From an uncultured Actinomycetes bacterium (lineage in GTDB: Bacteria > Actinomycetota > Thermoleophilia > Gaiellales > Gaiellaceae), in the NCBI GenBank assembly GCA_963720515.1, contig OY970397.1, forward strand, positions 223,363 through 287,362: 64,000 nucleotides of DNA, given 5' to 3'. The number at the start of each line of letters is the position of its first letter. Position 1 is the first letter of the stretch. The position numbers were made by a program, and so were the translations under genes. Below, piece by piece: positions 16,661 to 62,655 of this stretch. Under the pieces are notes generated by a model. It was not told where the DNA came from. It saw only the letters and a list, made by a program, of their open reading frames with translations, and made no database searches.

Positions 16661-16753
16661 ACCCGTTCGGGGGATCGCCGTCCGTCGCGGCCCGGACGAC
16701 CATTAGAGGCGTGTGCGGGACTGGAGTTCAGCGGCATTCGCCTGTGCCTCAGG
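16661..16753 (-). repeat. intergenic element family, copy X (degenerate)
   Basis: Shares CCCGTTCGGGGG, CGTGTG..GGGACTG and CTGTGCC..CAGG blocks with copy H. The spacer and -10 region are deleted or diverged. Confidence 0.4.
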
Positions 16754-16796
16754 CCCGTCGTGCGCATGGTTCACCCACCTGCAAAAGGAGGAAGAG

Positions 16797-16883
16797 ATGC
16801 TGCGGCTTCGCATTTGGGCGTTCCGCTACGCGCTTCTCGCGGCCTTCGTTTTGGCCTCGGGCGCGGGTTGGAAGTGGGACTGA
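16797..16883 (+). CDS. 28-codon hydrophobic small ORF with a strong Shine-Dalgarno sequence (possible leader peptide)
   Basis: aaaaGGAGGaagag-ATG; MLRLRIWAFRYALLAAFVLASGAGWKWD. Too short for the ORF track; found by reading. Confidence 0.35.
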   Translation: MLRLRIWAFRYALLAAFVLASGAGWKWD

Positions 16884-16902
16884 GAGTCCACTGAAGGACG
16901 GG

Positions 16903-16931
16903 GTGGCCGGCCCGAGTCTCGGGTCGGCCAC
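16903..16931 (+). other. strong GC hairpin between the small ORF and the DUF5317 gene
   Basis: gtggccg-g-cccga-gtc-tcggg-t-cggccac; no T-tract follows. Confidence 0.5.
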
Positions 16932-16974
16932 AACGGCCATCTCCCTTCCTGCGGCGACCTTCTCGACGCACTAA

Positions 16975-17467
16975 GTGTTTCTTCTCCCAAGCATCGCCCT
17001 GGGCATCGCCTTCGCCCTGCTTCTCGGCGGAAAACCTTCGCGCGTCCTTCGTCTCGAGGTCCACCACGGCTGGGCGGTGTTCCTCTCGCTCGGCACTCCA
17101 GATCGTGCTGTTCTCCGGCGCTCGCGGCATGATCCCGACTCCGCTCCTCGAGCCGCTTCACCTCGCGAGCTACGTGCTGCTCTTCTGGTTCGCGTTCGCG
17201 AACTTCCGGCGTCTGATCTTGCTCCCGCTCTTTCTCGGTATGGCGCTGAATGCCGATCGCGATCGTCGCGAACGGCGGCCAGATGCCCGTGAACCCCGAG
17301 GCCTGGGCGAGCACCGGGCTCGACAGCGCGGCGGGCTCGAACGTGGCCGTCGGGGCCGACCGGCTTGCGTTCCTCGGCGACATCTTCGCGCTGCCGACGC
17401 GAGCTCCCGCTCACGAACGTCTTCTCGATCGGCGACCTGCTCCTCGGGATCGGAACCGTGATCCTGA
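16975..17467 (+). pseudogene. DUF5317-like membrane protein split over four frames
   Basis: MFLLPSIALGIAFALLLGG... / LQIVLFSGARGMIPT...FLGMALN / IAIVANGGQMPVNPEA...LAFLGDIFALP / ELPLTNVFSIGDLLLGIG. Frame changes near 17095, 17250 and 17397. May be assembly error rather than decay. Confidence 0.6.
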
Positions 17468-17475
17468 TCGTCACC

Positions 17476-18747: not shown

Positions 18748-18758
18748 GGGGAGAATCC

Positions 18759-20163
18759 ATGGAATGTGACGTCGCCGTCCTCGGCGGCGGGCCGGGCGGC
18801 TACACGGCGGCCATCCGAGCCGCGCAGCTGGGCGCCAAGACCGTCTGCATCGAGAAGGAGCCGGAGCTCGGCGGCACGTGCCTCCGGATCGGCTGCATCC
18901 CGACGAAGGCCTGGGTCCAGACCGCCTTCTTCATCAAGGAGGCCGAGGAGAGCTTCGCCAAGCTCGGCGTGAAGGTCGGCCCGCCCGAGCTCGACTTCCC
19001 GGCCGCGAACGAGTGGAAGGCGAAGGTCGTGCACCAGCTCACGAGCGGCGTCGCGGGGCTCTTCAAGGCGAACGGCGTCGAGTGGGTGAAGGGCGTCGGC
19101 AAGTTCAAGGATGCAGAACACGATCGCGGTCGAGGGCGGGGAGGACGTCACGTTCACGAGCGCGATCATCGCGACCGGCTCGTTTCCCCTGCGACCGCCG
19201 ATCGAGGGCATCGACTCGGCCCGCTGCGTGGACTCGACCGGGCTCCTCGCGCAGACCGAGGTGCCGAAGCGCCTCGTCATCCTCGGCGGCGGCATCATCG
19301 GGTGCGAGTTCGCCTCGATCATGCAGCGCTTCGGGAGCGAGGTCACGATCGTCGAGATGCTCCCGTCGCTCATCCCGGCCGAGGACGCGGACGCGCAGAA
19401 GGAGCTCCTGAAGCAGTTCGGCAAGCGCGGCATCACCGTGCACCTCGAGTCGCAGTGCAAGAAGGTCGAGGAGACCGGCGACGGGCTGCTCGTGTCGTTC
19501 AACGACGATGCGGTCGAGTGCGACCTGATGCTCGTCGCGACCGGCCGCGGGCCGCTCGTCCAGGGGCTCGGCCTCGAGGAGATCGGCGTCGAGCTCGACC
19601 CGAAGAAGGGCATCGCGGCGAACGAGCAGCGCCGGACGAGCGTCAACCACATCTACGCGGTCGGCGACTGCGCCGGCTACTGGCAGCTCGCGCACACCGC
19701 GTTCCGCGAGGGGGAAGTAGCTGCCGAGAACGCCTGTGGCCACGAAGCGTTCGTGGACAACCGCGCGGTGCCGCGCCCGATCTACACGGATCCCGAGATC
19801 GCCGGCGTCGGCCTCACGGAGGCCGAGGCGCGCGAGCAGTTCGGCGACGACGTCGCGATCGGCGTCTTCCCCTGGTCGGCGAACGGCCGGGCGCTCATGC
19901 AGAACGAGACCGTCGGCTGGGTGAAGTCGATCCACGAGACCCGCTACGGCGAGCTCCTCGGCCTCGTGATGGTCGGGCCGCACGTGACGGATCTCATCGA
20001 GGCCGGCGTCGTCGCGATCGACGCCGAGTCCACGGTCGAGACGGTCGCGGACGGCATGACCGCGCACCCGACGCTCTCGGAGGCGATCAAGGAAGCGGGC
20101 CTCCTCGCCCTCGGCCGCGCCATCCACCTGCCGAACAAGAAGCGGGCGACGGCGAAGGCCTGA
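18759..20163 (+). CDS. lpdA: dihydrolipoyl dehydrogenase (E3), frame broken once near 19113
   Basis: DVAVLGGGPGGYTAAIRAAQLG...LGGTCLRIGCIPTK (redox-active CxxxxC) in ORF 18759. The rest (ILGGGIIGCEFAS...AHPTLSEAIKEA) is in the frame of ORF 19111..20163. Confidence 0.93.
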
Positions 20164-20185
20164 CCCGCGGCGCCATCTCGCCTGC

Positions 20186-20303
20186 GGAGTAGACGCGCGC
20201 GCGTCTGACTTCGGGTCCCGACCCGCCCCCTGCTCGCCGCTCAGGCTATCGCTGAAAACCGCACGTGTCTGTGACGGAACTGCACCAAAAGCGTGAAATC
20301 GGG
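20186..20303 (-). repeat. intergenic element family, copy A (hairpin module type 3)
   Basis: Minus-strand reading: ..GTTCCGTCACAGACA-17 nt-TAGCCT-GAGCGGCGAGCAGGGGGCGGGTCGGGACCCGAAGTCAGACGCGCGCGCGTCT. The -35-like hexamer is at 20266-20271 and the -10-like hexamer at 20243-20248 (plus-strand coordinates). Confidence 0.8.
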
Positions 20304-20360
20304 CAGCCCGGGTACCCGCGCGGAGTCACCCGGATAGACTCGGCGGCGGAAGGAGGCGCA

Positions 20361-20685
20361 ATGTTGAACCGGCGGAAGGCGACGATCGGCTGGCTCGCGT
20401 ACACGATCGGGAAGCCGGTTGTCGTCGGCACGATCAAGCGACGGGCGCGGCGAGCCGCGGCGAAGGACGACGAGCGGCGGCTCCACGGGCAAGACGGTCG
20501 CGAAGACGGCCGGGCTCCTCGCGGCGGCGGGCGCCGCTGCCGGGGCCGTGGTCTTCTGGCGCCGCTCCTCGAACGGGGCGGGCCCGGAGAGCGAGGCCCT
20601 CGCCGAGGCGAAGGGCGAGGACGAGAGCCGCAAGCCGGAGCCTGCACGCAGGGCGAACGGCGGCGGCGAGCCTCCCGAGAGCTGA
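20361..20685 (+). CDS. small membrane protein, frame broken once near 20475
   Basis: GGAAGGAGG then ATG 20361. MLNRRKATIGWLAYTIGKPVVVGTIKRR... continues in the frame of ORF 20419..20685 (GKTVAKTAGLLAAAGAAAGAVVFWRR...). Confidence 0.5.
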
Positions 20686-21815
20686 CCGCGGGGCGCGCCG
20701 ATACGGTCGTCGCGGGCGGCGGCCTGGCCGGGTGCGCCGTCGCGCGTTACCTCGCTGAGCGCGGCGAAGCGGTCGTCTGTGTCGAGCGCGGCTCGATCGG
20801 CGCGGGGGCGAGCGGGCGAAACGGCGGCTTCCTCTTCCGGCAACCCGCCGCGTGGATCAACGAGCTCCTGGCCGAGTCGGCGTCGATCTACGCCGAGCTC
20901 CAGGCCGGCGGGCCCGTCCCGTTCGAGTTCCGGCCGTGGCCGATGCTGCTCCTCGCCGCCGAGGAGGCCGAGCTCGAGCACGCCCGCGCCTACGCGGCCG
21001 CGGTCGGCGGCGCCGAGCACGACACGCGCGCCGATCCCTGGCTCGCCGACGACCTGGCCGGGCGGATTCCTCATCGACGGCGGCTACACGCTCGACGCGA
21101 TGGGCGCCACGAGCGCGATGGCCGAGGCCGCGCGCCGCGCCGGCGCCGAGCTCCGCACCGGCTGCGAGGCGAAGCGGATCCTCGTGGAGGGCGGCCGCGT
21201 GACCGGGCTCGTGACGGACGACGGCGTGATCGGGGCCGACCGCGTCGTGGTGGCGACCGGCCCTCGCACGCGGTTCCTGCTGCGCACCGCGGGCGTCGAT
21301 CTCCCGATCTCGTCCACGCGCGGCTGGCTGCTCGAGACCGCGCCGCTCGACCGGCGTCCCGCCGTACGCGATCGAGGAGGCGCGCTGGCCGGAACAGGAC
21401 GCGATGGGCGCGCTCGCGGCCGATCAGACGCTCGGCGAGCTCGCCGCCGGCGCCCGAGGATCCCGGCATCGTGTCGCTCCTCCTCGGCCCGCGCCCGGCG
21501 GGGCATCTGCTCATCGGCACGTCGCTGCGGCGCTCGCTCGTCGAGGACCCGGAGGGGCCGGAGACGCCTCGGGCGCTGGCCGAGCGCGCCGTCCGGATCG
21601 CCCCGCAGCTCCGGGACGTCCCCGTCGTCGCGGCCTGGTCGGGCCGCCGGGCCATGACGCCGGACGGTCTCCCCGCGGTCGGCCCGGTGCCGGGGGTCGA
21701 GGGGCTCGACGTCGCCGCCGGGTTCTCGTCGATCGGCATGGTCACGATCCCGGCCGCGTGCCGCCGCCTGGTCGAGGGCGGCGCCGAGGCCTTCGACCCC
21801 GGGCGCTTCGCGTGA
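20682..21815 (+). pseudogene. FAD-dependent oxidoreductase (DAO/DadA-like) with about three frame breaks
   Basis: DTVVAGGGLAGCAVARYLAERGEAVVCVE (dinucleotide-binding motif). Pieces lie in three frames, with breaks near 21060, 21355 and 21450. The C-terminus ends ...AAGFSSIGMVTIPAACRRL. The start codon is uncertain. Confidence 0.7.
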
Positions 21816-22750
21816 TCCGCGCGTACCGGCCCGACGACGTCGAGGCGTTCGCCGACCTGCTGGCGGAGATCGAGCCCGAGGAGGCGCGGTCGAACCCGGC
21901 GGGACTCGAGCACTGGATCGAGAGCCAGCCGGAGCGGTCGGCGCTCAGGATCTGGCTGCTCGAGGAGGACGGCCGGCTCGGCGGCGCCGCGTACGCCGGC
22001 CGGAACTGGACGCAGAGCGCGGGCGACACGGCCTGGCTCTGGGCCGGCGTGGCCAGGCGGTTGCGAGGCCATGGCGCCGGCGCCGGGCTGTTCGACCGCG
22101 CCGAGGCACACGCGGTCTCGCTCGGGCCGCGCACGATCGACACCTGGGCGTTCGAGGGCACGGGCGGCGAGGCGTTCGCCCTCGCACGCGGATTCGAGCC
22201 GTCGCGGCGCGACCTCGTCCAGCGCCTCGACCCGCGCGAGGCCGACCTCTCCGAGCTCGAGCCGCTTGCCGAGGCGCGGCGCGCGGACGGCTTCGAGGCG
22301 GTTCCGCTCGGCGCTGTCCGGGAGGACGAGACGGGACTCCACACGCTCTACCTCGCGGCGATGAACGACATCCCGTCGGACGAGCCGGAGGACTACCTGC
22401 CGTTCGACGAGTTCGTCTACCACGTCCTCGAGGACCCGAATCTCGATCCGGAGGCGAGCACGGTGATCGTCCACGACGGCCGGCCGGTCGCCCTCGCGCT
22501 CCTGCGCTCGATGCCCGAGTACGGGATCGGCGAGAGCGAGATGACCGGGACGCTGCCCGAGTTCCGTGGGCGCGGCCTCGCGCGGCTCGCGAAGCTCCGC
22601 GTCGTCCGCGGCGCGCGCGAGCTCGGGCTCGCGGAGCTGCTCACGGAGAACGACTCGGAGAACGCGCCGATCCTCGCCGTGAACCGCCGGCTCGGCTACC
22701 GCGTGACCCACACGCGGCTCACCCTCGTGCGCGCTACGCTGGGCGCATGA
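21812..22750 (+). CDS. GNAT family N-acetyltransferase (two GNAT-like halves)
   Basis: VIRAYRPDDVEAFADLL...RRLRGHGAGAGL and ...LPEFRGRGLARLAKL...ENAPILAVNRRLGY. GTGA overlap with the upstream gene. Confidence 0.8.
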   Translation: MIRAYRPDDVEAFADLLAEIEPEEARSNPAGLEHWIESQPERSALRIWLLEEDGRLGGAAYAGRNWTQSAGDTAWLWAGVARRLRGHGAGAGLFDRAEAHAVSLGPRTIDTWAFEGTGGEAFALARGFEPSRRDLVQRLDPREADLSELEPLAEARRADGFEAVPLGAVREDETGLHTLYLAAMNDIPSDEPEDYLPFDEFVYHVLEDPNLDPEASTVIVHDGRPVALALLRSMPEYGIGESEMTGTLPEFRGRGLARLAKLRVVRGARELGLAELLTENDSENAPILAVNRRLGYRVTHTRLTLVRATLGA

Positions 22751-23124
22751 GCGCGGTGACCGATCCGCTCGAGGGCGCCTCGACGAGCGAGGTGGGCGGG
22801 GCGCAGATCGACGTCGTCGACGTCGGCAAGGGCCGCGTGAAGCGCGTCGTCTACCCGGCCGGCTTCCGCTGGAGCGTGAACATGAAGCCGCACGTGGACA
22901 CCGACCTCTGCATGCACGCGCACATCGGCTTCCTGGCGCAGGGCGCGATCACGGGCGAGTACCCGGACGGCTGCACGTTCCACTACGAGGCGCCGGCGGT
23001 CGTCGCGATCGACCCGGGCCACGACGCGTGGGTCGAGGGCGACGAGCCCGCGGTGCTAATCGAGTTCGACGCCGGGCGCGACACGACCGAGATGTTCGGC
23101 GTCCCCGCCGAGCACTCGCACTAG
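22747..23124 (+). CDS. cupin domain protein
   Basis: 125 aa, small beta-barrel-like sequence (HAHIGFLAQGAITGEYPDG...AVLIEFD). ATGA overlap with the upstream gene. Confidence 0.6.
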   Translation: MSAVTDPLEGASTSEVGGAQIDVVDVGKGRVKRVVYPAGFRWSVNMKPHVDTDLCMHAHIGFLAQGAITGEYPDGCTFHYEAPAVVAIDPGHDAWVEGDEPAVLIEFDAGRDTTEMFGVPAEHSH

Positions 23125-23801
23125 GTCGCGGGCACGAGCCAGGTCGAGCGCGCGTAGGCCTTGAGCTCGCCGTGCGCGTCGAAGACGGCCGAGCCCGCAA
23201 AGCGCTTGCGCCCGTCCTCGCCGATCGGCCAGCCGATGACGACGTGCGGCTCGCCGGGGGTCACCGGGGCGACGATCCGCGCTGCAAGCCGCCCGAGCAG
23301 CACGCCGGAGCGCGAGAACTCGTCCACGGCCCAGCCGCTCGGGCAGTCGAGTGCGGCCCAGACGATCTCGTCCGGCAACGTCGGCCGGCGGCGTCCACGG
23401 CGAGGCGACGAGCTCGCGTCCGGCGACCGGCCCGGGGAAGATGCCAAGCCCGTCGTCCCGCGCAGGCCCGCAGACAAAGCACGTCTCGTAGGCGTGCGCG
23501 ACGAAACCCGGCGTAGCCCTTGCTCGCCTCTGCGGCGTCCTCCACGGACACCGGGCCGGGAACGTCGAGCTCGAACCCGTCGAGCGCGACCGCCTCCGCG
23601 ACGAGCGTCTCACCGTCGCGCACCTCGACTCGACCGTCCTCGCGCACCACCGCGAGCGGCCGGTCGAGCGGCGGCGGCACCCGCAGCGTCACCTCGGCAT
23701 GGCCGCCGAGTAGCGCGGCAGACGAGCCCGGCGGCATAGCCGCCGTTCGCGGAAGACGGGGGGCCATTGAAACGGCTGCGGATGGTGATGGTCTCGCTCA
23801 C
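23121..23801 (-). pseudogene. hotdog-fold thioesterase-like protein with about three frame breaks
   Basis: VSETITIRSRFNGPPSSANGGYAAGL / LGGHAEVTLRVPPPLDRPL... / AHAYETCFVCGPARDDGLGI / PDEIVWAALDCPSGW...VVIGWPIGEDGRKRFAGSAVF. Breaks near 23720, 23505 and 23390. TAGCTT lies 8 nt upstream of GTG 23801. Confidence 0.6.
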
Positions 23802-23824
23802 GGACGGCGAAGCTAGCAGGTGCC

Positions 23825-24499
23825 TTACACCCGGTAGAGCGCCGGCAGGAACACGTGGCCGGCGTGGGGGACCTCGACGTCCTCGAGGCCAAGCTCGTGG
23901 TCGATCGCCGGGAGCGCTCGCTCCCACTCGGTTTGCGTCGCGCCGATGTGCGTTGCGTCGTTCACGAACAGGACGTGGACGAGCCAGGCGTTCACGCCCG
24001 CGTCGCGCAGGAACTGGAGGTGTGCGTAGCGGGCGGCGGACTCGTAGAAGGAGCGCGTCCAGCGGTCCGGATCGGACTCGAGGCCGAGCGAGGCCTGCGT
24101 GTAGGCGAGCGCGCTCTTGATGCGCGAGGCCGACTTGGCGTTGGCTGCGCTCATCCGGCTTCGCAGCTCGCCCGGGTAGCTCGCGCCCTCGACGAGCAGC
24201 GCGCCCGGGTCGCCGTTGGGGAGCGTGAGGATCGCGGTCGCGTCCCACGCCGGGCCGCCCTTCGGCCAGAACGCCTTCAGCTTCGGCGCGAGCTGCTTGC
24301 AGCCGATCGCGCGCAGGAACGCCTCGTCCTGCGGTTCGCGGTAGTCGTTCGCCTCGAGCGGGGCCGTCCACTCGAACGTCGCGCCGTCGAGTTCCGGGAA
24401 CCGCTCGGCGACGGCGCGCTCGAGCTCGCCCGGGCGCTGGTTCACGTACTCGCGGACCTGGAACTTGCTGCCCTTCGCTCTTGGTGCGGGGCGCTCCAC
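23825..24499 (-). CDS. hypothetical protein (intact 224-aa ORF)
   Basis: Coding-like composition. Contains GGPAWDATAIL...ALLVEGASYPGEL, faintly reminiscent of PD-(D/E)xK cores but lacking the Lys. Confidence 0.6.
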   Translation of the reverse strand: MERPAPRAKGSKFQVREYVNQRPGELERAVAERFPELDGATFEWTAPLEANDYREPQDEAFLRAIGCKQLAPKLKAFWPKGGPAWDATAILTLPNGDPGALLVEGASYPGELRSRMSAANAKSASRIKSALAYTQASLGLESDPDRWTRSFYESAARYAHLQFLRDAGVNAWLVHVLFVNDATHIGATQTEWERALPAIDHELGLEDVEVPHAGHVFLPALYRV

Positions 24500-24543
24500 A
24501 CGCGCAGGATCGCACGCTGCGCCCGCGTCCGTATCATCGCCGC

Positions 24544-25707: not shown

Positions 25708-25708
25708 A

Positions 25709-25815
25709 TGGCACACCTCGTCACACATCCGGCACATTCCGTCACAGACACGTGACGAAGTTCGCGCTACCGTCGAAAGCGGGGGAAGAGGGCCGAAGGC
25801 CCCGGGGGCAATCTC
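25709..25815 (+). repeat. intergenic element family, copy B (hairpin module type 2)
   Basis: TGGCACACCT CGTCACACATC CGGCACATTC CGTCACAGACA-17 nt-TACCGT (25768-25773), then GGGGGAAGAGGGCCGAAGGCCCCGGGGG. Confidence 0.85.
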
Positions 25816-25825
25816 GCGCGAAGGG

Positions 25826-26743: not shown

Positions 26744-26828
26744 GGACGGACCCCATTGGGGACCCGTCCGCGAACTCCTCCCCCGAAATCGAACGGGCCC
26801 CGGAGCCGAAGCCCCGGGGCCCCTCGAG

Positions 26829-31751: not shown

Positions 31752-31779
31752 TAACTACTGGGCCGCGATAACCCCTGAC
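31752..31779 (+). repeat. cassette-boundary repeat R1 (5' 28 nt only)
   Basis: TAACTACTGGGCCGCGATAACCCCTGAC; 27 of 28 identical to R2. Confidence 0.75.
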
Positions 31780-32578: not shown

Positions 32579-32596
32579 GTCGAGACCGCCGATCGG

Positions 32597-32660
32597 TAAC
32601 TACTGGGCCGCGATTACCCCTGACTGCGCTCAGGCGACAGTACGCTCGCGCAAGCGAGCG
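32597..32660 (+). repeat. cassette-boundary repeat R2 (full length)
   Basis: TAACTACTGGGCCGCGATTACCCCTGACTGCGCTCAGGCGACAGTACGCTCGCGCAAGCGAGCG; starts about 18 nt after the stop of the upstream gene. Confidence 0.8.
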
Positions 32661-33750: not shown

Positions 33751-33854
33751 TGCCGCGCGGGAATCCACGCGGCCAGCAATTGGGCGCGGTTCGTCTCGCG
33801 CCCGTGCCTTGTCGCTCGGCGAGGGGACGAAGGGCTAGGCGAGGGTCCTTCACG

Positions 33855-33908
33855 CGACTACAGAGTTGCGTTTACCCCCGACTGCGCTCCAGCGACAGTA
33901 CGCTCGCG
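33855..33908 (+). repeat. cassette-boundary repeat R3
   Basis: CGACTACAGAGTTGCGTTTACCCCCGACTGCGCTCCAGCGACAGTACGCTCGCG. Confidence 0.8.
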
Positions 33909-34606: not shown

Positions 34607-34660
34607 CGTGTGCTCGCTCACCCATCCAGGCTATCGCTCGCCGCCGCCGCATCTCGCCAG

Positions 34661-34712
34661 CGACTACAGAGCTGTCTTTATCCCCGACTGCCCTCGAGCG
34701 ACAGCACGCACG
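34661..34712 (+). repeat. cassette-boundary repeat R4
   Basis: CGACTACAGAGCTGTCTTTATCCCCGACTGCCCTCGAGCGACAGCACGCACG. Confidence 0.75.
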
Positions 34713-35334: not shown

Positions 35335-35781
35335 CTACTCCGGCGCGAGGCCCTTGGCCCGGAGCTCATCCAGGGCGGACTCCGACTTCTCGAGTCCGTC
35401 GAGCCCCATGCCGTGCAGGACGTGGTCGGCCTTCGTGAACTGGATGTCACCGTAGCCGACGATCTCGATCCGGTTGCCCCACGGGTCGCGCGTCTCGAGC
35501 CCGCGTCCCGGCAGGATCTCGGCGCCAGCCTCTTCGAGGGCGCGGCGCGCGAGCTCCTTGTCGTCCACGACGAATCCGACGTGGCGGTTGCGGTCCGGCT
35601 CCTGCGTCTTCCCCTCCGAGAGCGCGACGAACTGGTCGCCGAGGTCGAGGAACGCCATACCTCCGACCCGGCCGCGGAGCGTGAACTCGAAGATCCGCCC
35701 GTACCAGGCGAGCGCCTCCTCGATGTCGCCGACCTCGAACGCGACGTGGTTCAGGCCGACGAGTCGCGGCCGGCCGGCCAC
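35335..35781 (-). CDS. glyoxalase/VOC family protein
   Basis: LNHVAFEVGDIEEALAWYGRIF...HVGFVVDD...RDPWGNRIEIV. Confidence 0.85.
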   Translation of the reverse strand: MAGRPRLVGLNHVAFEVGDIEEALAWYGRIFEFTLRGRVGGMAFLDLGDQFVALSEGKTQEPDRNRHVGFVVDDKELARRALEEAGAEILPGRGLETRDPWGNRIEIVGYGDIQFTKADHVLHGMGLDGLEKSESALDELRAKGLAPE

Positions 35782-35782
35782 G

Positions 35783-36613
35783 TCAGCTGCGGCGCCAGCC
35801 GCGCCGCTCGCCGTTGCCGCCGCCGGCCTGGTCGCGCTTCGGCTCCTCCGGCTCGGCTTCCGCCTCGGGCTCTGGCTCGGCTTCCGCCTCGGGCTCGGGC
35901 TCCGGTTCAGGTTCGGGCTCCGGTTCAGGTTCGGGCTCCGGTTCAGGTTCGGGCTCCGGTTCAGGTTCGGGCTCCGGCTCAGGTTCGGGCTCCGGCTCAG
36001 GTTCGGGCTCCGGCTCAGGTTCGGGCTCCGGCTCCGGCTCAGGTTCCGGCTCCGGTTCGGGCGGTGGGGACGGCGGGCCCGCCATGCGTGCGGCCGGCGG
36101 CACCTCCACGATCTGCTCGGCCGGGGGCGGCTCGACCTCGGGCCACTGGGCGGGAGTCCGCACCGCGAACTCGTTCATCCGCGAGACCACGTTCTCGAGT
36201 CCGCGGCGCGCCCATTCGGCCCGCTCGACCATGAGCCGGACGCCTTCGTCGATCCACTCCTCGCGCCGGTGCGCGGCCTCCTCGACGATCGCGGCCTGCC
36301 GGCGGGCCTCGGCCAGGATCTGATCCGCCTCGGTGCGCGCGGCGTCGAGGATCAGACGGGCGTCGGCCTCGGCCTCGCGGCTCCGGTCCGAGCGGAGACC
36401 CGACACCTCGGACTCGGCCTGGCGGCGCATGTCCTCGACCTCGGCGCGGGCCATCTCGAGGATGTGCTCGGCGGCCTGCTCGGCCGCGGTGAAGACGGCG
36501 GAGACTCGCGGGCCGATGCCTGCGGCCGAGTCGAGTTCGCGCTCATCGGCGCGCTCGCCGCCCGCCCCCGACGAGGGTGGGCCGCCGCCGGCTTGGTCGT
36601 CCGGGGGCCGCAC
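35783..36613 (-). CDS. coiled-coil protein with a long C-terminal (Pro-Glu)n repeat
   Basis: [26 protein letters not shown]...[21 protein letters not shown] (ATPase b/E- or DivIVA-like coiled coil), then about 45 PE dipeptides. TACGCT lies 7 nt upstream of GTG 36613. Confidence 0.7.
35846..36062. repeat. tandem 6/18-bp coding repeat (encodes the PE dipeptide array)
   Basis: ggctccggttcaggttcg repeated several times, then the ggctccggctcaggttcg variant, read directly from the sequence. Confidence 0.9.
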
Positions 36614-40991: not shown

Positions 40992-41033
40992 GGCCGAATC
41001 ATGACGGGTTCTGCAAGCCGTTCCTAGCCGACC

Positions 41034-41061
41034 TTGACAATCGGGCCGTGAGGTCTACTCT
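41034..41061 (+). promoter_or_regulatory. sigma-70-type promoter of the M1 peptidase gene
   Basis: TTGACA (41034-41039), 16-nt spacer, TACTCT (41056-41061), with ATG 9 nt downstream (leaderless or near-leaderless). Confidence 0.55.
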
Positions 41062-43735: not shown

Positions 43736-43880
43736 CGCGCTGTGCACGAATCGGCACAAGATCTGTCCGTTTGGGACGCAGACAAGCCAGCGCTTCGGCG
43801 TTAGCCTAGGCGGCGAGAAGGGGGCGGGTCGGGAGCCCGAATCAGACGCGCGCGTGAATCAGCGCGCCGCGCGCTCGCCT
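43736..43880 (+). repeat. intergenic element family, copy C (diverged; hairpin module type 3)
   Basis: GCTGTGCACGAATCGGCACAAGAT...GACGCAGACA (43779-43784)-17 nt-TAGCCT (43802-43807)-AGGCGGCGAGAAGGGGGCGGGTCGGGAGCCCGAATCAGACGCGCGCG. Confidence 0.6.
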
Positions 43881-43882
43881 GT

Positions 43883-47149: not shown

Positions 47150-47275
47150 GGGCGTGCTAGAACCGGCGCGCTTCCGGCACGATTTCGGCACACGGGCGCC
47201 CCGCGCGCGGGGCTATCGTGACTCTGGGGACGCGCGCTCCCCCAAGGGGGGAGTACGCCTCGGGGGAGACATGGC
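47150..47275 (+). repeat. intergenic element family, copy D (hairpin module type 1; -35 position degenerate)
   Basis: CTTCCGGCACGATTTCGGCACACGGG-17 nt-TATCGT (47214-47219)-GACTCTGGGGACGCGCGCTCCCCCAAGGGGGGAGTACGCCTCGGGGGAGACATGGCC. Confidence 0.65.
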
Positions 47276-50000: not shown

Positions 50001-50021
50001 GCGGCGACGCTCGTCGGGACG

Positions 50022-51314: not shown

Positions 51315-51339
51315 CCCACGCGGCCCCGTCCCAACCGGC

Positions 51340-51467
51340 CATGTCCTCGGCGAGGCGCACTCCCCCCTTGGGGGCGCGCGGGCCCCAGCACGAACGCTAT
51401 CGAGGCCGGGCGCGCGTGTCTGTCACGGAACTGCGCCGATTGTGTGCCGATCGCTCCACAGGCGGTG
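51340..51467 (-). repeat. intergenic element family, copy E (hairpin module type 1)
   Basis: Minus-strand reading: CCTGTGGAGCGATCGGCACACAATCGGCGCAGTTCCGTGACAGACA-17 nt-TAGCGT-TCGTGCTGGGGCCCGCGCGCCCCCAAGGGGGGAGTGCGCCTCGCCGAGGACATGGCC. Confidence 0.85.
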
Positions 51468-51474
51468 GGCGGCC

Positions 51475-52434
51475 GTGAGAATCGCGGTCCTCGGCGGCGG
51501 GTCGTGGGGATCGGCGGTCGCCGCGCTCCTCGCCGAGGAGCACCACGACGTCACGCTCGTCTGCCGCGACCCGGAGCAGGCGCGCACGATCTCCGAGACC
51601 GGTCGGAACCCGCGCTACCTGCGCGACCTCGACCTCTCCGCCGTCCGCGCGGTCTCGTTCGAGGACGCCGACCTCGCCTCCGCGGAGCTCTTCGCGATCG
51701 CGGTGCCGAGCCGCGCCTTCCGCGAGGTCGTCGAGGGGCTCCCGCCGAACGACGCGCCCGTGCTCTCCCTGGTGAAGGGCCTCGATCCCGCGTCCGGCGG
51801 GCGCCTCTCGCGCGTCGTCCGTGACCGGCCGGTCGCCGTCCTCTCGGGGCCCAACCACGCGGAGGAGATCGCCGCCGGCCTGCCCGCCGCCGCCGTGATC
51901 GCGAGCGACGACGAGGCGCTCGCGACGCGTCTCCAGCACGCGGTCTTCACGCCGCGCTTCCGCGTCTACGTGAACACCGACTTGGTCGGCGTCGAGCTTT
52001 GCGCGGCGGCGAAGAACGTGATCGCGCTCGGCGCGGGCGCCGTGGACGGGCTCGGCATGGGCGACAACGGCAAGGCGGCGCTCATGACGCGCGGCCTCGC
52101 CGAGATGGTGCGGCTCGGTGACGCGGCCGGGGCGCGGCCCGAAACCTTCTCCGGCCTCGCCGGGATGGGCGACCTCATGGTCACCTGCTGGAGCCGTCAC
52201 AGCCGCAACCGCCGCGCCGGCGAGCTGATCGCGCGCGGCGCGTCCCCCGACGAGGCCAGGGCCGAGATCGCGATGGCCGTCGAGGGCCTGACGACCGCAC
52301 CGATCCTCCGCGACCTCGGCCGCAGCCTCGGAACCGAGCTCCCGATCACCGAGGCGGTGTGCGACGTCCTCGACGGCGCGTCGCCGCGTGAGGCCGTCGC
52401 GGATCTCATGGGCAGAGCCCCCACAGGGGAGTAG
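51475..52434 (+). CDS. gpsA: NAD(P)H-dependent glycerol-3-phosphate dehydrogenase
   Basis: VRIAVLGGGSWGSAVAALLA...GRNPRYL...AAKNVIALGAG. Confidence 0.92.
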   Translation: MRIAVLGGGSWGSAVAALLAEEHHDVTLVCRDPEQARTISETGRNPRYLRDLDLSAVRAVSFEDADLASAELFAIAVPSRAFREVVEGLPPNDAPVLSLVKGLDPASGGRLSRVVRDRPVAVLSGPNHAEEIAAGLPAAAVIASDDEALATRLQHAVFTPRFRVYVNTDLVGVELCAAAKNVIALGAGAVDGLGMGDNGKAALMTRGLAEMVRLGDAAGARPETFSGLAGMGDLMVTCWSRHSRNRRAGELIARGASPDEARAEIAMAVEGLTTAPILRDLGRSLGTELPITEAVCDVLDGASPREAVADLMGRAPTGE

Positions 52435-52466
52435 CGGCCGCCCGGGGCGGCATCTACCCTCAGGTC

Positions 52467-53912: not shown

Positions 53913-53923
53913 CGTTCCCGCCC

Positions 53924-55201: not shown

Positions 55202-55254
55202 CGCCTCCGGCTCCGGCTCCGGCGCACGAGCCGCGCTCCGCGCCCGCACCGGCA

Positions 55255-55385
55255 CCGGCTGTGGACGAACCGGCACAGACTCGGCACGGTCCCGTGACAG
55301 ACACGCGCGCCCGGCCCCGATAGCGTTCGTGCTGGGGCCCGCGCGCCCCCCAAGGGGGGAGTGCGCCTCGCCGGGGACATGGCTC
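55255..55385 (+). repeat. intergenic element family, copy F (hairpin module type 1)
   Basis: GCTGTGGACGAACCGGCACAGACTCGGCACGGTCCCGTGACAGACA (CAGACA 55298-55303)-17 nt-TAGCGT (55321-55326)-TCGTGCTGGGGCCCGCGCGCCCCCCAAGGGGGGAGTGCGCCTCGCCGGGGACATGGC. Confidence 0.85.
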
Positions 55386-55426
55386 CGGCGGACGGGTCTG
55401 AAAGGGCGTGCGAGGGCGCGGCGGCG

Positions 55427-56101: not shown

Positions 56102-56142
56102 GGAGCCGATTCTAGGGCGCCGTCCTCGCCTGGGGCGATCCT

Positions 56143-58080: not shown

Positions 58081-58092
58081 ACTGGCGCGTCG

Positions 58093-58671
58093 ATGGCCGA
58101 GGAGATCGAGGGGCAGGTCCGCGAGGGCGAGGAGCTCGACGCCGAGCGCGAAGGGCGGCGCCGGCTCGCGCTCGCGCAGGTTCGGCAGTACCCGGACCCA
58201 GTCCTGCGGCTGCGCGCCCGCGAGGTGACCGAGTTCGACGACGCGCTCGCCTCGCTCGTCGACCGCATGGGGCGGCTCATGAACGACGCGCGCGGCGTCG
58301 GGCTTGCGGCGCCGCAGCTCGGCCTGTCCCAGCGCGTGCTCGTCTACCAGATCGCCGAGGACAGCCCGGTCGTAGCGCTCGTGAACCCGACCATCGTGGA
58401 GTCCTCCGAGGAGACCGAGACGGGCGACGAGGGCTGCCTGTCGCTCGGCGCGGCGACGATCGCCGTCCCGGTCGAGCGGCCCGTGCGGATCACGGTCGAG
58501 GCCGTGGACGCCGCCGGGGAGCCGATCCGCGCCGAGGCCGAGGGGCTCGAGGCGCGCGTGATCCAGCACGAGCTCGACCACCTGGACGGCGTGCTCACGA
58601 TCGACCGGACGACGCCCGAGGCGAAGCGGGACGCGCTCGCCAAGCTGCGCCCGCAGCCCGTTCTCGGGTGA
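58093..58671 (+). CDS. def: peptide deformylase
   Basis: GVGLAAPQLG...EGCLS...HELDHLDG. Confidence 0.95.
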   Translation: MAEEIEGQVREGEELDAEREGRRRLALAQVRQYPDPVLRLRAREVTEFDDALASLVDRMGRLMNDARGVGLAAPQLGLSQRVLVYQIAEDSPVVALVNPTIVESSEETETGDEGCLSLGAATIAVPVERPVRITVEAVDAAGEPIRAEAEGLEARVIQHELDHLDGVLTIDRTTPEAKRDALAKLRPQPVLG

Positions 58672-59457
58672 AGATCGACGTCGCGGCGACCGCCCCGCTG
58701 GGGGCGGCCGTGCTCGAAGGGCTTGCCGAGCGCGGACGACGTCGAGCTGCTCGTCACGCGGCCGGACCGCCCGCGCGGGCGGGGCCGGAAGCTCGGCGCG
58801 CCGCCGGCCAAGGAGGTCGCCGAGCGGCTCGGCATCCCGGTGGAGCAGCCGGAGCGGCTGGACGACTGGCCCGGCGACGCGCCGGTCGTGGTCGTCGCCG
58901 CGTACGGGGCGCTGATTCCCTCGGCGCTGCTCGAGGACCGGCTCTGGCTGAACGTCCATCCGTCGCTCCTGCCGCGCTGGCGCGGGGCGGCGCCGGTCGA
59001 GCGCGCGATCATGGCCGGCGACGCGGAGACCGGCGTGACGATCCACCGGACGACCGCCGAGCTCGACGCGGGGCCGATCGCCGCGCAGCGGGCGTTCCCG
59101 ATCGGGCCGGACGACGACGCGGGCGTCGTGTACGAGCGGGCGGCCGCGACCGCGCTCGAGCTGCTCGACGAGGTGCTGCCCGAGCCGGCCTTCCAGCCGC
59201 AGCCGGAGGAGGGCGCGACCTACGCCGAGAAGATCGGGCCGAAGGACCGCGAGCTCGACTGGTCGCGCCCGCCGCAGGAGCTGCACGACCGGATCCGCGG
59301 GTTGGCGCCGCACATCGGCGCCCGCGGCGAGGTCGAGGGCCGCCCCGTGATCGTGTGGCGCTCGCGCCTTGTGGACGGCGGACTCGAGATCCTCGAGGTC
59401 CAGCCGGAGGGCGGGAAGCGCATGCCGCTCGAAGCCTTCCGCCGCGGTCTCCGGTGA
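58668..59457 (+). CDS. fmt: methionyl-tRNA formyltransferase, frame broken once near 58735
   Basis: GTGA overlap with def. VKIDVAATAPLGAAVLEGLAERG, then DDVELLVTRPDRPRGRGRK...HPSLLPRWRGAAP in the frame of ORF 58723..59457. Confidence 0.88.
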
Positions 59458-59580
59458 GCGCGGTCACGAACTCGGCGCAGGTCGTGACACTCTCGGCACG
59501 TTCCGTCACAGACACGCGCGGATTTCGCGCGTATCGTCAACGGCGGGGGCAAGGGGCCGAAGGCCCCCGGGGGAAGTCTC
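59458..59580 (+). repeat. intergenic element family, copy G (hairpin module type 2)
   Basis: CGGCGCAGGT CGTGACACTCT CGGCACGTTC CGTCACAGACA (59473-59514)-17 nt-TATCGT (59532-59537), then GGCGGGGGCAAGGGGCCGAAGGCCCCCGGGGGAAG. Confidence 0.85.
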
Positions 59581-59596
59581 ACGAGCGGGTTGCGGC

Positions 59597-60835
59597 GTGA
59601 CCGCGCGCGACGTCGCCTTCCAGGTCGTCCGCCGCGTCTTCGAAGACGACGCGTACGCCGACCGCGCCTTCCGCTCGGCGGCCGACGCGGCCGCGCTCGA
59701 CGAGCGCGACCGCGCCTTCGCCATGCAGCTCGCCTACGGGACGGTGCAGCGCGTCCGCACGCTCGACCACGCGATCGACACGCTCGGCCGGCGTCCCGTC
59801 CGCAAGCTCGATGCACCCGTACTGGCCGCGCTCCGCCTCGGCGCCTACCAGCTCGGCTTCATGGACGGCGTCCCCGCCCATGCCGCGGCGAACGAATCCG
59901 TCGAGCTCGTCCGCGCGGCCGGGCTCGAGCGCGCGGTCGCGTTCACGAACGCGGTCATGCGCCGCCTGGCCGAGGGCATCCGCGAGCTCGTGGCATCGCT
60001 CCCCGAGGCGACGCCCGCCGAGGCCGCGCTCCGCCACTCCTACCCGGACTGGATCGCCGAGACCTTCTGGCGCGAGCTCGGGCCCCCCGACGCGCTCGCG
60101 CTCATGGCCGCGCAGAACGAGCCGCCGCCGACCGTCGTCCGCGTGGCGGCGCGCGGCGTCGATCTCCCGGGCGAGCGGGATCCCGAGGTCCCCACCGCGC
60201 TCACGGTCGACCGGATCGCGCCCGAGTGGATCGAGCAGGGGCTCGCCTGGCCGCAGAGCCGCGGGTCCCAGCTCGCAGCACTCGCCGTCGGCGCGCAGCC
60301 CGGCGAGCGGATCCTCGACCTCTGCGCGGCCCCGGGCGGCAAGGCGATGCAGCTCGCCGAGGCCGCCGCCGAGGTGGTCGCGGTCGAGCTCCACGAGGGC
60401 CGCGCGCGTGAGCTCGAGGACACCGCCGCGCGATTCGGCCTCGCGAACGTCCGCGTCGTCAACGCCGACGCGCTGGAGCTCGACCCCGCCTACACGGGCT
60501 TCGACCGGGTGCTCGTGGACGCGCCGTGCTCCGGCCTCGGCGTCCTCGCCTCGCGGCCCGATCTGCGCTGGCGCGCCGAGCCGCTGCCCGAACTTCAGCG
60601 AGGGCTGCTCGCGGTGGCCGCCGAGCGCGTGCGCCCTGGCGGCACGATCACCTACTCCGTGTGCACGATCACCCGCGCCGAGACCGACGACATCGTGGAC
60701 GCCGGAGGCCTCCCGCTCGACGACCTCGGGGCCGAGTGGCCAGCCTTCCGCCACCCGCGGCGCCCTGAGGCGCTGCTCACGCTCCCGCATGTCCACGGCA
60801 CGTCCGGCTTCTTCACGGCGAGAATGCGCGCATGA
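59597..60835 (+). CDS. rsmB: 16S rRNA (cytosine-C5)-methyltransferase RsmB/Sun
   Basis: NusB-like N-terminus, then LDLCAAPGGK...VDAPCSGLGV...YSVCT. Confidence 0.9.
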   Translation: MTARDVAFQVVRRVFEDDAYADRAFRSAADAAALDERDRAFAMQLAYGTVQRVRTLDHAIDTLGRRPVRKLDAPVLAALRLGAYQLGFMDGVPAHAAANESVELVRAAGLERAVAFTNAVMRRLAEGIRELVASLPEATPAEAALRHSYPDWIAETFWRELGPPDALALMAAQNEPPPTVVRVAARGVDLPGERDPEVPTALTVDRIAPEWIEQGLAWPQSRGSQLAALAVGAQPGERILDLCAAPGGKAMQLAEAAAEVVAVELHEGRARELEDTAARFGLANVRVVNADALELDPAYTGFDRVLVDAPCSGLGVLASRPDLRWRAEPLPELQRGLLAVAAERVRPGGTITYSVCTITRAETDDIVDAGGLPLDDLGAEWPAFRHPRRPEALLTLPHVHGTSGFFTARMRA

Positions 60836-61509
60836 GCTGGGAGACGTGGTCGCGTGGGCCGGAGATCGAGCCGTCGCTCTACGCGGCCGACTTCGCGCGG
60901 CTCGGCGAGCAGATCGAGACGCTCCTCGACGCGGGCGTCCGGATCTTTCACTTCGACGTCGGCGACGGGCACTTCGTCGAGCCGGTCACCATCGGTCCCG
61001 TCGTCCTCCAGTCGATCTCCGGCCTCGTCCACGACCGCGGAGGCGTGCTCGACTGCCATCTCATGGTGACGAACCCTGAGCGCCACTTTCCGCAGATCGC
61101 GCGGGCCGGGGGCGACAGCGTCACGTTCCACCACGAGGTCGCGGACGATCCGGCCGCGCTGGTCGCGCAGGCGCGCGACCTCGGGCTCGGCGTCGGGCTC
61201 GCGTTCAACCCGGAGAGCGCGGTGGCCGACGCGGTCGCCGTGGCGGACGGCGTCGACCTCGTGCTGTGCATGAGCATCCATCCCGGCTACTCCGGCCAGG
61301 AGTTCATGCCCGAGGCGATCGACCGGCTCCGCGCCACGCGCGACGCGCTCCCCGCCGAGGTGCACGTGCAGGTGGACGGCGGGATCACGGACGAGAACGT
61401 CGCAGCCGTGCGCGAGGCGGGCGCCGATCTGATCGTCGCCGGGAGCGCCGTCTTCGGGGCCTCGTCCATCGCGGACGCCTACCGCGGGCTCGCGTCCGCG
61501 ATCGCGTGA
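60832..61509 (+). CDS. rpe: ribulose-phosphate 3-epimerase
   Basis: IEPSLYAADFARLGEQIE...HFDVGDGHFV...HLMV...MSIHPGYSGQ. Confidence 0.93.
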   Translation: MSWETWSRGPEIEPSLYAADFARLGEQIETLLDAGVRIFHFDVGDGHFVEPVTIGPVVLQSISGLVHDRGGVLDCHLMVTNPERHFPQIARAGGDSVTFHHEVADDPAALVAQARDLGLGVGLAFNPESAVADAVAVADGVDLVLCMSIHPGYSGQEFMPEAIDRLRATRDALPAEVHVQVDGGITDENVAAVREAGADLIVAGSAVFGASSIADAYRGLASAIA

Positions 61510-62500
61510 GCGACGACGCCCGGCACCTCGAGCGCGCGATCGAGCTCGCCGAGCAGGGCCGCGGGACGACGCGGCCGAACCCGCTCGTCGGCGCCGTCGT
61601 CGTCAGCGGACGGCGAGGTGGTGGGGGAGGGCTGGCACGAGCGGCCGGGGCTTCCGCACGCCGAAGCACTCGCGCTCGAGGCGGCGGGGGAGCGGACGCG
61701 CGGCGCGACGCTCTACGTGACGCTCGAGCCGTGCGTCCACACCGGGCGGACGCCCCCGTGCGCGGACGCCGTGGTCGCGGCCGGGATCGCGCGGGCCGTG
61801 GTCGGCGCCCAGGATCCGTACGCGCCCGTGAACGGGCGGGGTCTCACACGAATTCGCGAGGCGGGAATCGAGGTCTCGCTCGCCGAGGGCGATCTCGCCC
61901 GGCGCGTCCGGCGGCAGAACGAGGCGTTCCTCACCTGGGCGGCCGAGGAGCGTCCGTTCGTCACGTACAAGGCGGCGATGACGCTCGACGGTCGGCTGGC
62001 CGCGTCCTCCGGAGATGCGCGCTGGATCTCGGGCGAGGAGAGCCGGCGGCGCGCGCACGAGTTGCGCGCGCTCGCGGATGCGGTCGCGGTCGGCATGGGC
62101 ACCGTGCGTGCGGAGAATCCGCGCCTCGACGCCCGTGACGTGGGAGCGGAGCGCCAGCCACGCCGGCTCGCGTTCGGGCAAGGGCCGCTTCCCGAGGGCT
62201 CGGAGCTCGAGCTCGTCGAAGGCCCGCTCGACGAGGCGCTGCGCCGGCTCGCGGAGGAGGAGGTGCAGTCGCTGCTGCTGGAGGGCGGGCCCACGTTGGC
62301 CGGCGCGTTTCTGCGCGCCGGCCTCCTGGACAAGCTCGTCCTGTTCGTGGCGCCGACGCTCATCGGCGGCGACGACGCGCCGCCGCTCTTCGCGGGCCCG
62401 GGCGCGCAGACGCTTGCGGAGGCGGTTCCCCTGTCTCGCCCTCGAGACCGACCGCGCGGGCGACGACGTCGTCCTGACGGCGTACGTCCGCGAGCCCTAG
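61506..62500 (+). CDS. ribD: bifunctional riboflavin biosynthesis deaminase/reductase RibD, frame broken near 61610 and 62430
   Basis: RAIELAEQGRGTTRPNPLVGAVVV / GEVVGEGWHERPGLPHAEALALE...LEPCVHTGRTPPC...KAAMTLDGR...LLLEGGPTLA / ETDRAGDDVVLTAYVREP. Confidence 0.88.
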
Positions 62501-62534
62501 CCTCCGAGGCAGCCGTCCGACGCGCCGCTGGCGC

Positions 62535-62655
62535 CCGCAAGCGGGCGCTCCCCCCGTTCGGGGGCGCGAGGCTCCCAGCACGAACGCTATCGGGGCCGGG
62601 CGCACGTGTGTGTCGCGGAACTGCACCGAATCTGTGCCGATCGCTCCACAGGCCG
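62535..62655 (-). repeat. intergenic element family, copy H (hairpin module type 1 variant) between ribD and ribE
   Basis: Minus-strand reading: CCTGTGGAGCGATCGGCACAGATTCGGTGCAGTTCCGCGACACACA-17 nt-TAGCGT-TCGTGCTGGGAGCCTCGCGCCCCCGAACGGGGGGAGCGCCCGCTTGCGGGCGC. Confidence 0.8.

Follow-up and report, generated by a model that had tools for sequence, protein, structure and literature searches.

Correia elements (CREE or NEMIS) of Neisseria are dispersed intergenic units of ~100-150 bp, which carry promoters, form RNA hairpins and are found beside or inside operons in either orientation; they possess 26-bp terminal inverted repeats and duplicate a TA target, and their promoter is created at the junction. 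The MIRU repeats of actinobacteria lie at operon junctions, with the flanking stop and start codons at the element ends, and consist of 40-100-bp units, often in tandem, which contain short open reading frames (ORFs), in frame with the neighbouring genes, and no promoter and keep one orientation relative to the operon. A family of intergenic elements with a promoter-like core is described here from a window of 64,000 nucleotides (nt) of contig OY970397.1 from an uncultured member of the Gaiellaceae; the window denotes this whole stretch. The family appears to lie outside the Rfam families and outside the MITE, Correia, REP and MIRU classes, and conceptually it comes nearest to putative mobile promoters (PMC3575422). 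These are closely similar promoter sequences in front of unrelated genes of a genome, common to related taxa, and most of their families have no Rfam match and no known mechanism of mobilisation (Matus-Garcia, Nijveen and van Passel 2012; PMC3575422). The present family likewise places similar promoters upstream of unrelated genes in related taxa and has no match in Rfam. Unlike the members of that descriptive category, however, about half of its copies face no gene, and the promoter is fused to conserved modules, predicted to be transcribed, and preceded by phased repeats. With the Correia elements the family shares dispersed intergenic positions, a promoter, hairpins and both orientations, but it occurs in a different phylum, no inverted repeats and no TA duplication were seen, and the promoter is internal and complete; the first and last 40 nt matched each other no better than shuffles in all eight clear copies. 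RTGA at both ends of sites E and G recalls MIRU, whereas the copies here are single, non-coding, promoter-bearing and found in both orientations, and indels in the G run break every reading frame among copies of one type. REP and REPIN sequences are short imperfect palindromes that mostly come in inverted pairs, in genomes with a RAYT gene. The family differs from them in having single copies and a core without palindromic symmetry, in which the proximal unit takes C or G independently of the distal one.

With moderate confidence, the copies are read as self-contained transcription units, each comprising a promoter and a short structured RNA or leader, which would be multiplying or becoming homogenised within Gaiellales genomes. 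The upstream half, from about -75 to -7, would act as a promoter of the housekeeping-sigma type under strong selection, with a TAnnnT -10 hexamer and a weak CAGACA -35 hexamer 17 nt upstream. The latter would lie within an unusually conserved block (TYCCGTSACAGACACGYG), preceded by TCGGCAC and GTCAC at intervals of 11 nt, or one helical turn. RNA polymerase would start on a G run ~7 nt after the -10 and would transcribe one module with one or two GC-rich hairpins. To our knowledge, no promoter or small RNA (sRNA) biology is on record for the Gaiellales, abundant soil actinobacteria with one cultured species. The family offers a precisely defined and extremely conserved predicted promoter, with a start site predictable to the base, as well as a candidate binding site for a factor and several candidate sRNAs or leaders.

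Spacing and start site of the predicted promoter

Relatedness between copies was assessed by pairwise local alignment, with z-scores calculated against dinucleotide shuffles. The nine stretches proposed by the initial annotation (A to H and X) were found at the same positions and on the same strands, and eight of them, A to H, were clearly related; X, however, was only marginally alike, with z=3.1 against H, z=2.1 against D and nothing against the remaining copies, was missed by the promoter hidden Markov model and is a doubtful relic. The alignments separated three subfamilies, namely type 1 with E, F, H and D (pairs at z=7 to 49, with z=49 for H-E, z=36 for H-F and z=21 for D-E and D-F), type 2 with B and G (z=37) and type 3 with A and C (z=24). 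Across subfamilies the likeness runs through the promoter half, with z=8-12 (A-G z=12, B-E z=9.6, A-E z=9.4). An unsupervised repeat search also yielded E/F/H (83-88% identity over >100 nt) and A/C (79% over 76 nt). No further family member was found in the other long intergenic regions of the window (G+C content 70-76%), where the nine copies fill 9 of ~21 non-coding stretches of at least 100 nt.

The core that had been proposed as common to the copies, CCGTSACAGACACG, was found exactly in A, B, E, F and G and with two mismatches in H, but C and D lack the full core; CAGACA is kept in C and lost in D. Allowing up to two mismatches, CCGTSACAGACACG matched at eight positions of the window against 1.83 expected, a number reached by none of 100 shuffles; two of the eight (53986, and 55270 within F) are not separate copies, and exact cores amount to 5 per 64 kb. 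The pattern CASACA-N17-TANNNT occurred exactly seven times against 0.04 expected (reached by 0 of 100 shuffles), and all seven were listed copies (A, B, C, E, F, G and H), with -10 hexamers identical to those annotated before. A TAnnnT hexamer, as in the -10 of actinobacterial housekeeping (group 1/2 sigma) promoters, was present in A to H, and a -35-like hexamer (TTGACA-related) was present at exactly 17 nt, within the 16-18 nt of such promoters, in seven copies, not in D, X or the variants of the related locus L109.

Public genomes, one per species, were scanned with the 18-nt pattern TYCCGTSACAGACACGYG, which gave at least 108 matching stretches. This pattern stops 15 nt before the -10, so that the -10 had no part in the selection of matches. 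Among the matches listed, to which all counts out of 107, 82 and 80 refer, TAnnnT was present at exactly 17 nt in 80 of 107 usable stretches, displaced by one nt in two and absent from 25, the latter being chance matches in coding sequence, mostly from unrelated phyla (Proteobacteria, Firmicutes and others). Outside the window, the spacing was exactly 17 nt in 80 of the 82 genuine members. The 80 represent ~80 loci, nearly all from metagenome-assembled genomes (MAGs) of Gaiellaceae, Gaiellales, Thermoleophilia or Actinomycetota, and on this sequence evidence the architecture with its fixed spacing is conserved across species.

Coding-like ORFs start 6-7 nt after the -10 at five loci. They encode a ComM/Mg-chelatase in two species (L060 and L093; Pfam) and an orthologous conserved protein of 88-96 amino acids in two species (L008 and L009); the fifth is at L077. 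At L019 and L098/L099, a Shine-Dalgarno sequence (the G-rich start) and a start codon follow directly after the predicted +1. In Actinobacteria, leaderless mRNAs that begin at a start codon ~7 nt after TAnnnT are the norm. As far as sequence evidence can go, the leaderless-type ORFs thus indicate in which direction the shared promoter is read and where it would start. The starts predicted for the copies in the window were deduced from these leaderless genes at other loci, and the G run begins 7 nt after the -10 in almost every copy. Leaderless ComF genes were also considered at L034 and L082 and were rejected, the codon statistics in that frame being non-coding.

Thus the annotated arrangement, a -35 hexamer (xxGACA) at a fixed 17 nt from a TAnnnT -10 and not a palindromic REP-type repeat, is supported by other genomes as well as by leaderless genes. 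The spacer, described as unconserved, does vary among the subfamilies, but it is not entirely free, as it tends to begin with CGYGCG and to contain TTTCC. A canonical promoter (TTGACA, ~17 nt, TACTCT) was observed at ~41025-41060 of the window, upstream of a gene starting at 41071; the housekeeping -35 of this organism is thus the standard one, beside which CAGACA is weak. A scan for promoters and terminators of the E. coli type found no promoter and, at the copies, no U-tailed terminator, such a scan being uninformative at 72% GC. Reading the opposite strand (GGAAC) as a target of an extracytoplasmic function (ECF) sigma factor was rejected on inspection: GGGAC stands at this position in more than half of the copies, and a CGTT-type -10 is missing. 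A promoter for stable RNA was likewise rejected, as only one of the eight tRNA genes in the loci sits behind an element; this is at L033 (4279-4524, minus strand), where a tRNA-Leu gene follows, on the same strand, ~50 nt behind an element with a type-3 module.

Phased upstream block and candidate binding factors

The -35/-10 pair of the initial annotation is present, but the conserved block is far longer, extending from about -75 to +1 in units phased at 11 nt. The units have the form G-N-S-A-C, with GTCAC (24 of 80 copies) or GGCAC followed after six nt by GGCAC or GTCAC, after a further six nt by GTSAC, and then by GACAC. At the unit TCGGCAC, on which the scan had not selected, the information content was 1.0-1.8 bits per position, and 11 nt farther up there is a GTCAC/GGCAC/GACAC unit. 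GTnAC-like units are repeated directly, at least twice, every 11 bp. The consensus of MtrA consists of two GTnAC-like repeats with five to six bases between them and an 11-bp period, with GTCACAgcg repeats in M. tuberculosis (PMC5650626, PMC4285127). Like the sites of the OmpR/PhoB family (MtrA, GlnR, PhoP, AfsQ1, SARP-type), the block contains 11-bp GTnAC repeats that run into the -35 region, and a poor -35. Those sites are, however, loosely conserved and belong to functional regulons, whereas here up to 18 nt are identical across dozens of species and the genes downstream of the elements share no theme; a binding protein can be named as a candidate only. Because the weak -35 occurs together with phased direct repeats, the promoter is probably recruited by a DNA-binding activator, for which the most likely candidate would be a winged-helix response regulator of the OmpR/PhoB class (MtrA/GlnR/PhoP type, with GTnAC-n6-GTnAC). 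Should the idea of an activator be true, the family would illustrate the rewiring of many housekeeping operons in a small genome through one signal. A palindrome or dimer site, GTCAC...GTGAC, was rejected, the proximal C/G choice being independent of the distal unit (32 vs 27).

A genome-wide regulatory layer, in which one conserved activator would turn on hundreds of identical promoters at operon junctions in both orientations, seems distinctly unlikely. If it existed, the same signal would raise the genes behind sense copies (aroA, rsmB, purD and others), and convergent transcription together with antisense RNA would lower der/gpsA, ribD/ribE and lpdA. The G-run/C-run/G-run start, capable in some types of forming a G-quadruplex, would then be a built-in switch or a former of R-loops.

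The block also contains GACAC, which is the motif of WhiA; at the studied target sepX, which is leaderless, the WhiA site lies upstream of the -35 (PMC10243135). As in WhiA/WhiB-activated promoters, the GACAC motif overlaps the -35 hexamer in GACA. Unlike in sepX, however, GACAC here occupies the -35 position itself, where sigma region 4 would probably read it. In 17 of 80 copies, among them the type-1 copies E (51455-51461), F (55261-55267) and H (62643-62649) in the window and L089, L108 and others elsewhere, a TGTGGA(C)-like sequence precedes the first phased unit by one helical turn. It resembles the reverse complement of the actinobacterial DnaA box, TTGTCCACA, which L089 matches at 9 of 9 positions. 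GACAC, the DnaA-box-like sequences and the phasing of the units by one helical turn would all suit an array bound by proteins at the DNA level, serving the nucleoid, replication or segregation, with an incidental likeness to a promoter and no transcription. Such an array would leave unexplained why a -10 lies at a fixed distance and why real genes begin 6-7 nt after it, and the G run at the predicted +1 is kept in every module type; it is considered highly improbable.

Downstream modules and neighbouring genes

All module types have a G-run/C-run/G-run layout in common. Type 1 (D, E, F and H) consists of GGGG..CCCCC-loop-GGGGGG and a second hairpin, type 2 (B and G) of GGGGG..GGGGCCGAAGGCCCC..GGGGG, and type 3 (A and C) of GGGGGCGGGTCGGGACCCG, present in eight copies across species, followed by a (CG)n run. 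Types 4 to 6 were found only in other genomes. Type 5 (GGGGAGGAGGCCGGGCGAACC) is the commonest, is conserved over ~33 nt only and is barely structured, and type 6 has the textbook motif of a G-quadruplex. The latter motif (CCCCGGGTGGGTGGGGGTTAGGGATGGGACCC) was observed in the 5' leader before hemD at L052 and L107 and before tyrA at L096 and L108; G-quadruplexes bind haemin, which makes the position before the haem-biosynthesis gene hemD intriguing. Types 2 to 4 have a CACGCGCGCGTGAAC-like motif in common at their 3' end. The predicted folds of the modules were strong. In profile searches with types 1 to 3 over ~1 Mb (window and loci), 19 of 19 modules lay directly behind a promoter or behind a decayed promoter that keeps its -10. 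Promoter and module therefore form one unit, and in the sequences searched the linkage was obligatory.

No Rfam family known to the initial annotation had matched the element, and an Rfam search agreed, giving nothing on any copy in the window at the gathering score or at E<=1 and no match in 18 related loci. Literature searches with the core sequence and for Gaiella found no matching paper. Peptide coding was rejected as a function of the modules: some type-3 copies start with ATGGCAGGGGGG.., but the length of the G run shifts the frame, and the copies in the window have no start codon.

The modules (types 1 to 6) might themselves be the functional products of a family of trans-acting sRNA genes, for which position and orientation would be irrelevant. 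Their G-rich, Shine-Dalgarno-like 5' ends would pair with targets or titrate a protein or ribosomes, and the promoter would be a common regulatory signal. The constant linkage of modules to a promoter, the conservation of module types across species as strong as that of the core, and the random orientation relative to neighbours are consistent with this, as are B, C and F, which lie between two gene ends and therefore can be orphan units only. The second hairpin of type 1 varies as a whole helix among the seven sequences sampled (CCTCG..CGAGG vs GCCCGC..GCGGGC), differing in sequence yet forming a helix as a terminator stem would. The same modules, however, are 5' leaders of unrelated genes (D of aroA, G of rsmB, type 5 of purD and hutH), U-tailed terminators and covariation are missing, and the commonest type has a short conserved stretch and hardly any structure. 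That the module type varies between genomes at one orthologous site is also hard to reconcile with an sRNA kept for its sequence. A family of sRNA genes is thus considered possible but unlikely.

The copies are free of codon periodicity, and gene names from Pfam agree with the intergenic position among unrelated housekeeping genes described initially, as do the orientations, six copies aiming at the 3' end of a neighbour and three at a gene start (Table 1). Elsewhere, the downstream genes on the same strand were hutH, purD (four species), tgt, recG, comM, hemD, tyrA, aroA and genes for a sugar transferase, a peptidase C26, a permease, an amidase, a DsrE-family protein and a methyltransferase; a thematic regulon was rejected, these being unrelated housekeeping genes. 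Orientation relative to neighbours is close to random: counted with a crude gene caller, the four possible contexts were nearly equal in number (14, 15, 12 and 11), and within same-strand gene pairs about half of the elements point at the downstream gene.

If the copies are self-contained transcription units, the fate and role of the RNA would, we infer, vary with position. In sense (D, G and possibly X), a copy would be an internal operon promoter with a structured leader. D and G, each with a predicted promoter and a structured leader, lie inside operons that are tightly coupled in relatives, and at L109 and L110 the 3' end of the module provides the GAGG of the aroA ribosome-binding site. 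In antisense within former operons (A, E and H), convergent transcription would be directed against the 3' end of the upstream gene and its read-through, and between convergent genes (B, C and F) only a short orphan RNA would be made. ribE was observed to have a leaderless-type promoter of its own (TATCGT-TTCCCGC-ATG, ~62680-62702), between H and the ribE start codon, and a palindrome, GGCCGGGGGCCCCGGCC, lies just upstream of it.

Several points weigh against reading the copies as self-contained transcription units. The activator is a guess from the resemblance of motifs; the exactly conserved block of 14-18 nt exceeds the usual half-site of a response regulator, and whether the proximal unit has C or G is uncorrelated with the state of the distal one. 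At L109 the core differs (..ACCACGCG..) and the -35 position at 17 nt is not GACA-like, so that the -35 reading does not hold for every lineage. Folding of the alignments of types 1 and 2 gave no informative covariation, the paired columns being invariant G/C runs and at most one consensus pair showing a double change, and the hairpins at the copies have no U tails as in terminators. Only 8 nt separate E from the start codon of gpsA, too few for a promoter of its own; gpsA must therefore be transcribed through E from der, against the promoter of E, and such read-through would sit uneasily with a terminator role for the E hairpin. Finally, the gene caller behind the counts of orientation was crude.

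Table 1. Copies of the element in the window, their predicted promoters and modules, and the flanking genes
Feature	Position	Strand	Type and sequence	Support	Flanking genes and direction
X, whole (decayed relic, doubtful)	16661..16753	-	TAATGG where TAnnnT would stand; core missing at 17 nt		GGDEF-HD (-) / MFS; upstream of GGDEF-HD gene (Pfam)
A, whole	20186..20303	-	type 3	exact core; z=24 to C	lpdA-like / DAO oxidoreductase; points at lpdA-like 3' end (Pfam)
A, predicted promoter	20243..20271	-	CAGACA 20266-20271, 17 nt, TAGCCT 20243-20248; start ~20236		
A, module	20194..20232	-	type 3; GCAGGGGGCGGGTCGGGACCCG...GACGCGCGCGCGTC	nhmmer E=9e-9; predicted fold	
B, whole	25709..25815	+	type 2	exact core; z=37 to G	3' ends of aminotransferase and SLT (-) genes (Pfam)
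B, predicted promoter	25745..25773	+	CAGACA, 17 nt, TACCGT; start ~25780		
B, module	25781..25822	+	type 2; GGGGGAAGAGGGCCGAAGGCCCCGGGGGCAATCTCGCGCG	nhmmer E=5e-6; predicted fold	
C, whole	43736..43880	+	type 3; upstream half diverged	z=24 to A	3' ends of rluB and trpS (-) (Pfam)
C, predicted promoter	43779..43807	+	CAGACA, 17 nt, TAGCCT; start ~43814		
C, module	43818..43856	+	type 3	nhmmer E=7e-8	
D, whole	47150..47275	+	type 1	z=21 to E and F	tyrA / aroA junction; sense
D, -10	47214-47219	+	TATCGT; -35 position degenerate; GGCACA 21 nt upstream		
D, module	47227..47275	+	type 1	nhmmer E=4e-7	
E, whole	51340..51467	-	type 1	exact core; alignment z	der (stop at 51314) / gpsA (GTG at 51475); points at der
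E, predicted promoter	51394..51422	-	CAGACA 51417-51422, 17 nt, TAGCGT 51394-51399; start ~51387		
E, module	51338..51386	-	type 1; GGGGCCCGCGCGCCCCCAAGGGGGGAGTGCGCC and second hairpin CCTCGCCGAGG	nhmmer; predicted fold	
F, whole	55255..55385	+	type 1	exact core; alignment z	3' ends of metK and DtxR-like (-) gene (Pfam)
F, predicted promoter	55298..55326	+	CAGACA, 17 nt, TAGCGT; start ~55333		
F, module	55335..55383	+	type 1	nhmmer	
G, whole	59458..59580	+	type 2	exact core; alignment z	fmt (stop at 59457) / rsmB (GTG of GTGACCGCGCGCGAC, near 59597); sense
G, predicted promoter	59509..59537	+	CAGACA, 17 nt, TATCGT; start ~59544		
G, module	59545..59590	+	type 2	nhmmer E=4e-9	
H, whole	62535..62655	-	type 1	core with two mismatches; alignment z	ribD (true stop 62498-62500) / ribE; points at ribD
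H, predicted promoter	62584..62612	-	CACACA, 17 nt, TAGCGT; start ~62577		
H, module	62532..62575	-	type 1; second hairpin GCCCGCTTGCGGGC	nhmmer; predicted fold	

Some copies are overlain by long chance ORFs, such as that at 61618-63300, which is open across H because ribD is frameshifted. The frame of ribD shifts near 62440, and its true C-terminus (..DDVVLTAYVREP*, stop at 62498-62500) is in the other frame. The lpdA-like gene (18759-20163) is split over two frames, and at 20300-24500 the best frame switches repeatedly. The frame breaks in ribD, in the lpdA-like gene and at 20.3-24.5 kb are likely to be indel errors of long-read assembly or signs of pseudogenes. In the annotation of MAGs, the units are of value as marks of operon boundaries, with assembly or frameshift errors clustering nearby.

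Orthologous sites and other features of the window

Six syntenic regions of 21 kb were obtained via homologues of MetK; proteins named Gaiellaceae or Thermoleophilia share 77-88% identity with the MetK of the window. Among the three closest relatives, elements occupy the junctions known from the window, with unchanged orientation, at 5 of 5 comparable sites, namely D (L109, L110 and weakly L112), E (L110), F (L112), G and H (both L109). Between genomes, such shared sites differ in module type and spacer, and copies inside one genome are more alike: D and H of L109 are both of type 2, with the same spacer and the same variant core, and D, E, F and H of the window are all of type 1. At the F site of L109 (12061-12210), a different long palindrome was observed, CCCGCCCCTAC...GTAGGGGCGGG, which may be another family of intergenic elements. 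No element was found in the syntenic 21 kb of L113-L115 (79% MetK identity), where the same gene pairs overlap or abut. The density was 8-9 copies per 64 kb in the window, whereas relatives whose MetK is 80% identical had 2-3 copies in 21 kb. Other Gaiellales genomes had at least 3-5 exact-core copies each, a density far below that of the five exact cores in the 64 kb of the window. These figures, with three relatives devoid of copies in 21 kb, do not show the family to be very abundant genome-wide, as had been proposed; the high copy density looks lineage-specific.

Sites E and G show RTGA at both ends when filled and a single overlapping stop/start GTGA when empty, a pattern that fits either a 4-bp target duplication or plain selection for one stop and one start codon. 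A search of metagenomes with an over-specific 31-nt type-1 pattern gave one extra locus, present in two soil samples, where a type-1 copy with 93% identity has other genomic surroundings. A phage origin was rejected, the single match on a viral contig being a chance match in an AT-rich context without a -10.

A selfish miniature mobile element (MITE-, REP- or Correia-like) with an outward promoter, spread by a transposase or recombinase encoded elsewhere, might leave similar traces, and conservation would then be due to recent amplification and not to function. Consistent with this, E, F and H are 83-88% identical over their full length, including spacer positions that would be expected to be irrelevant to function, the copies favour gene junctions and gaps between convergent genes, and their density is lineage-specific; filled and empty orthologous sites with double and single RTGA/GTGA, and the near-identical copy in a different context, also fit. 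The elements have, however, no terminal inverted repeats and no palindromic core, the RTGA duplication corresponds to a stop and a start codon, which selection would in any case require, all five comparable sites keep position and orientation across genomes, and no transposase was seen among the genes adjoining any copy. Across dozens of species, conservation is highest in the promoter while the rest varies, and the -10 is kept even in orphan copies, which argues for selection on promoter function. A mobile element of this kind is therefore judged unlikely.

For self-contained transcription units, we infer the mode of copy spread from the same comparisons, which point to long-lived sites, homogenisation or replacement within genomes and lineage-specific expansion. 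The family would provide a natural case of promoters copied or homogenised within a genome without the hallmarks of a transposon, in which an element predicted to fire with or against them has come between genes that once overlapped and were translationally coupled.

Other repeats were also observed in the window. A second, unrelated family, GTAACTACTGGGCCGCGATTACCCCTGACTGCGCTC.GGCGACAGTACGCTCG, occurs at 31756-31779, 32596-32648, 33854-33906 and 34660-34712, with three to four copies within 3 kb, each in a non-coding gap of a stretch of lower GC content (~69%), and may mark an island. At 35846-36062, 12 tandem units of 18 nt (CTCCGGCTCAGGTTCGGG, 88% matches) lie inside the minus-strand ORF 35335-36174 and would encode a protein repeat of six residues. 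A sub-threshold match to RF00558, the ribosomal protein L20 leader, was obtained at 2974-3084 on the plus strand (30.4 bits vs a gathering score of 58.7, E=0.055), just upstream of ORFs presumed from their order and sizes to be infC-rpmI-rplT.

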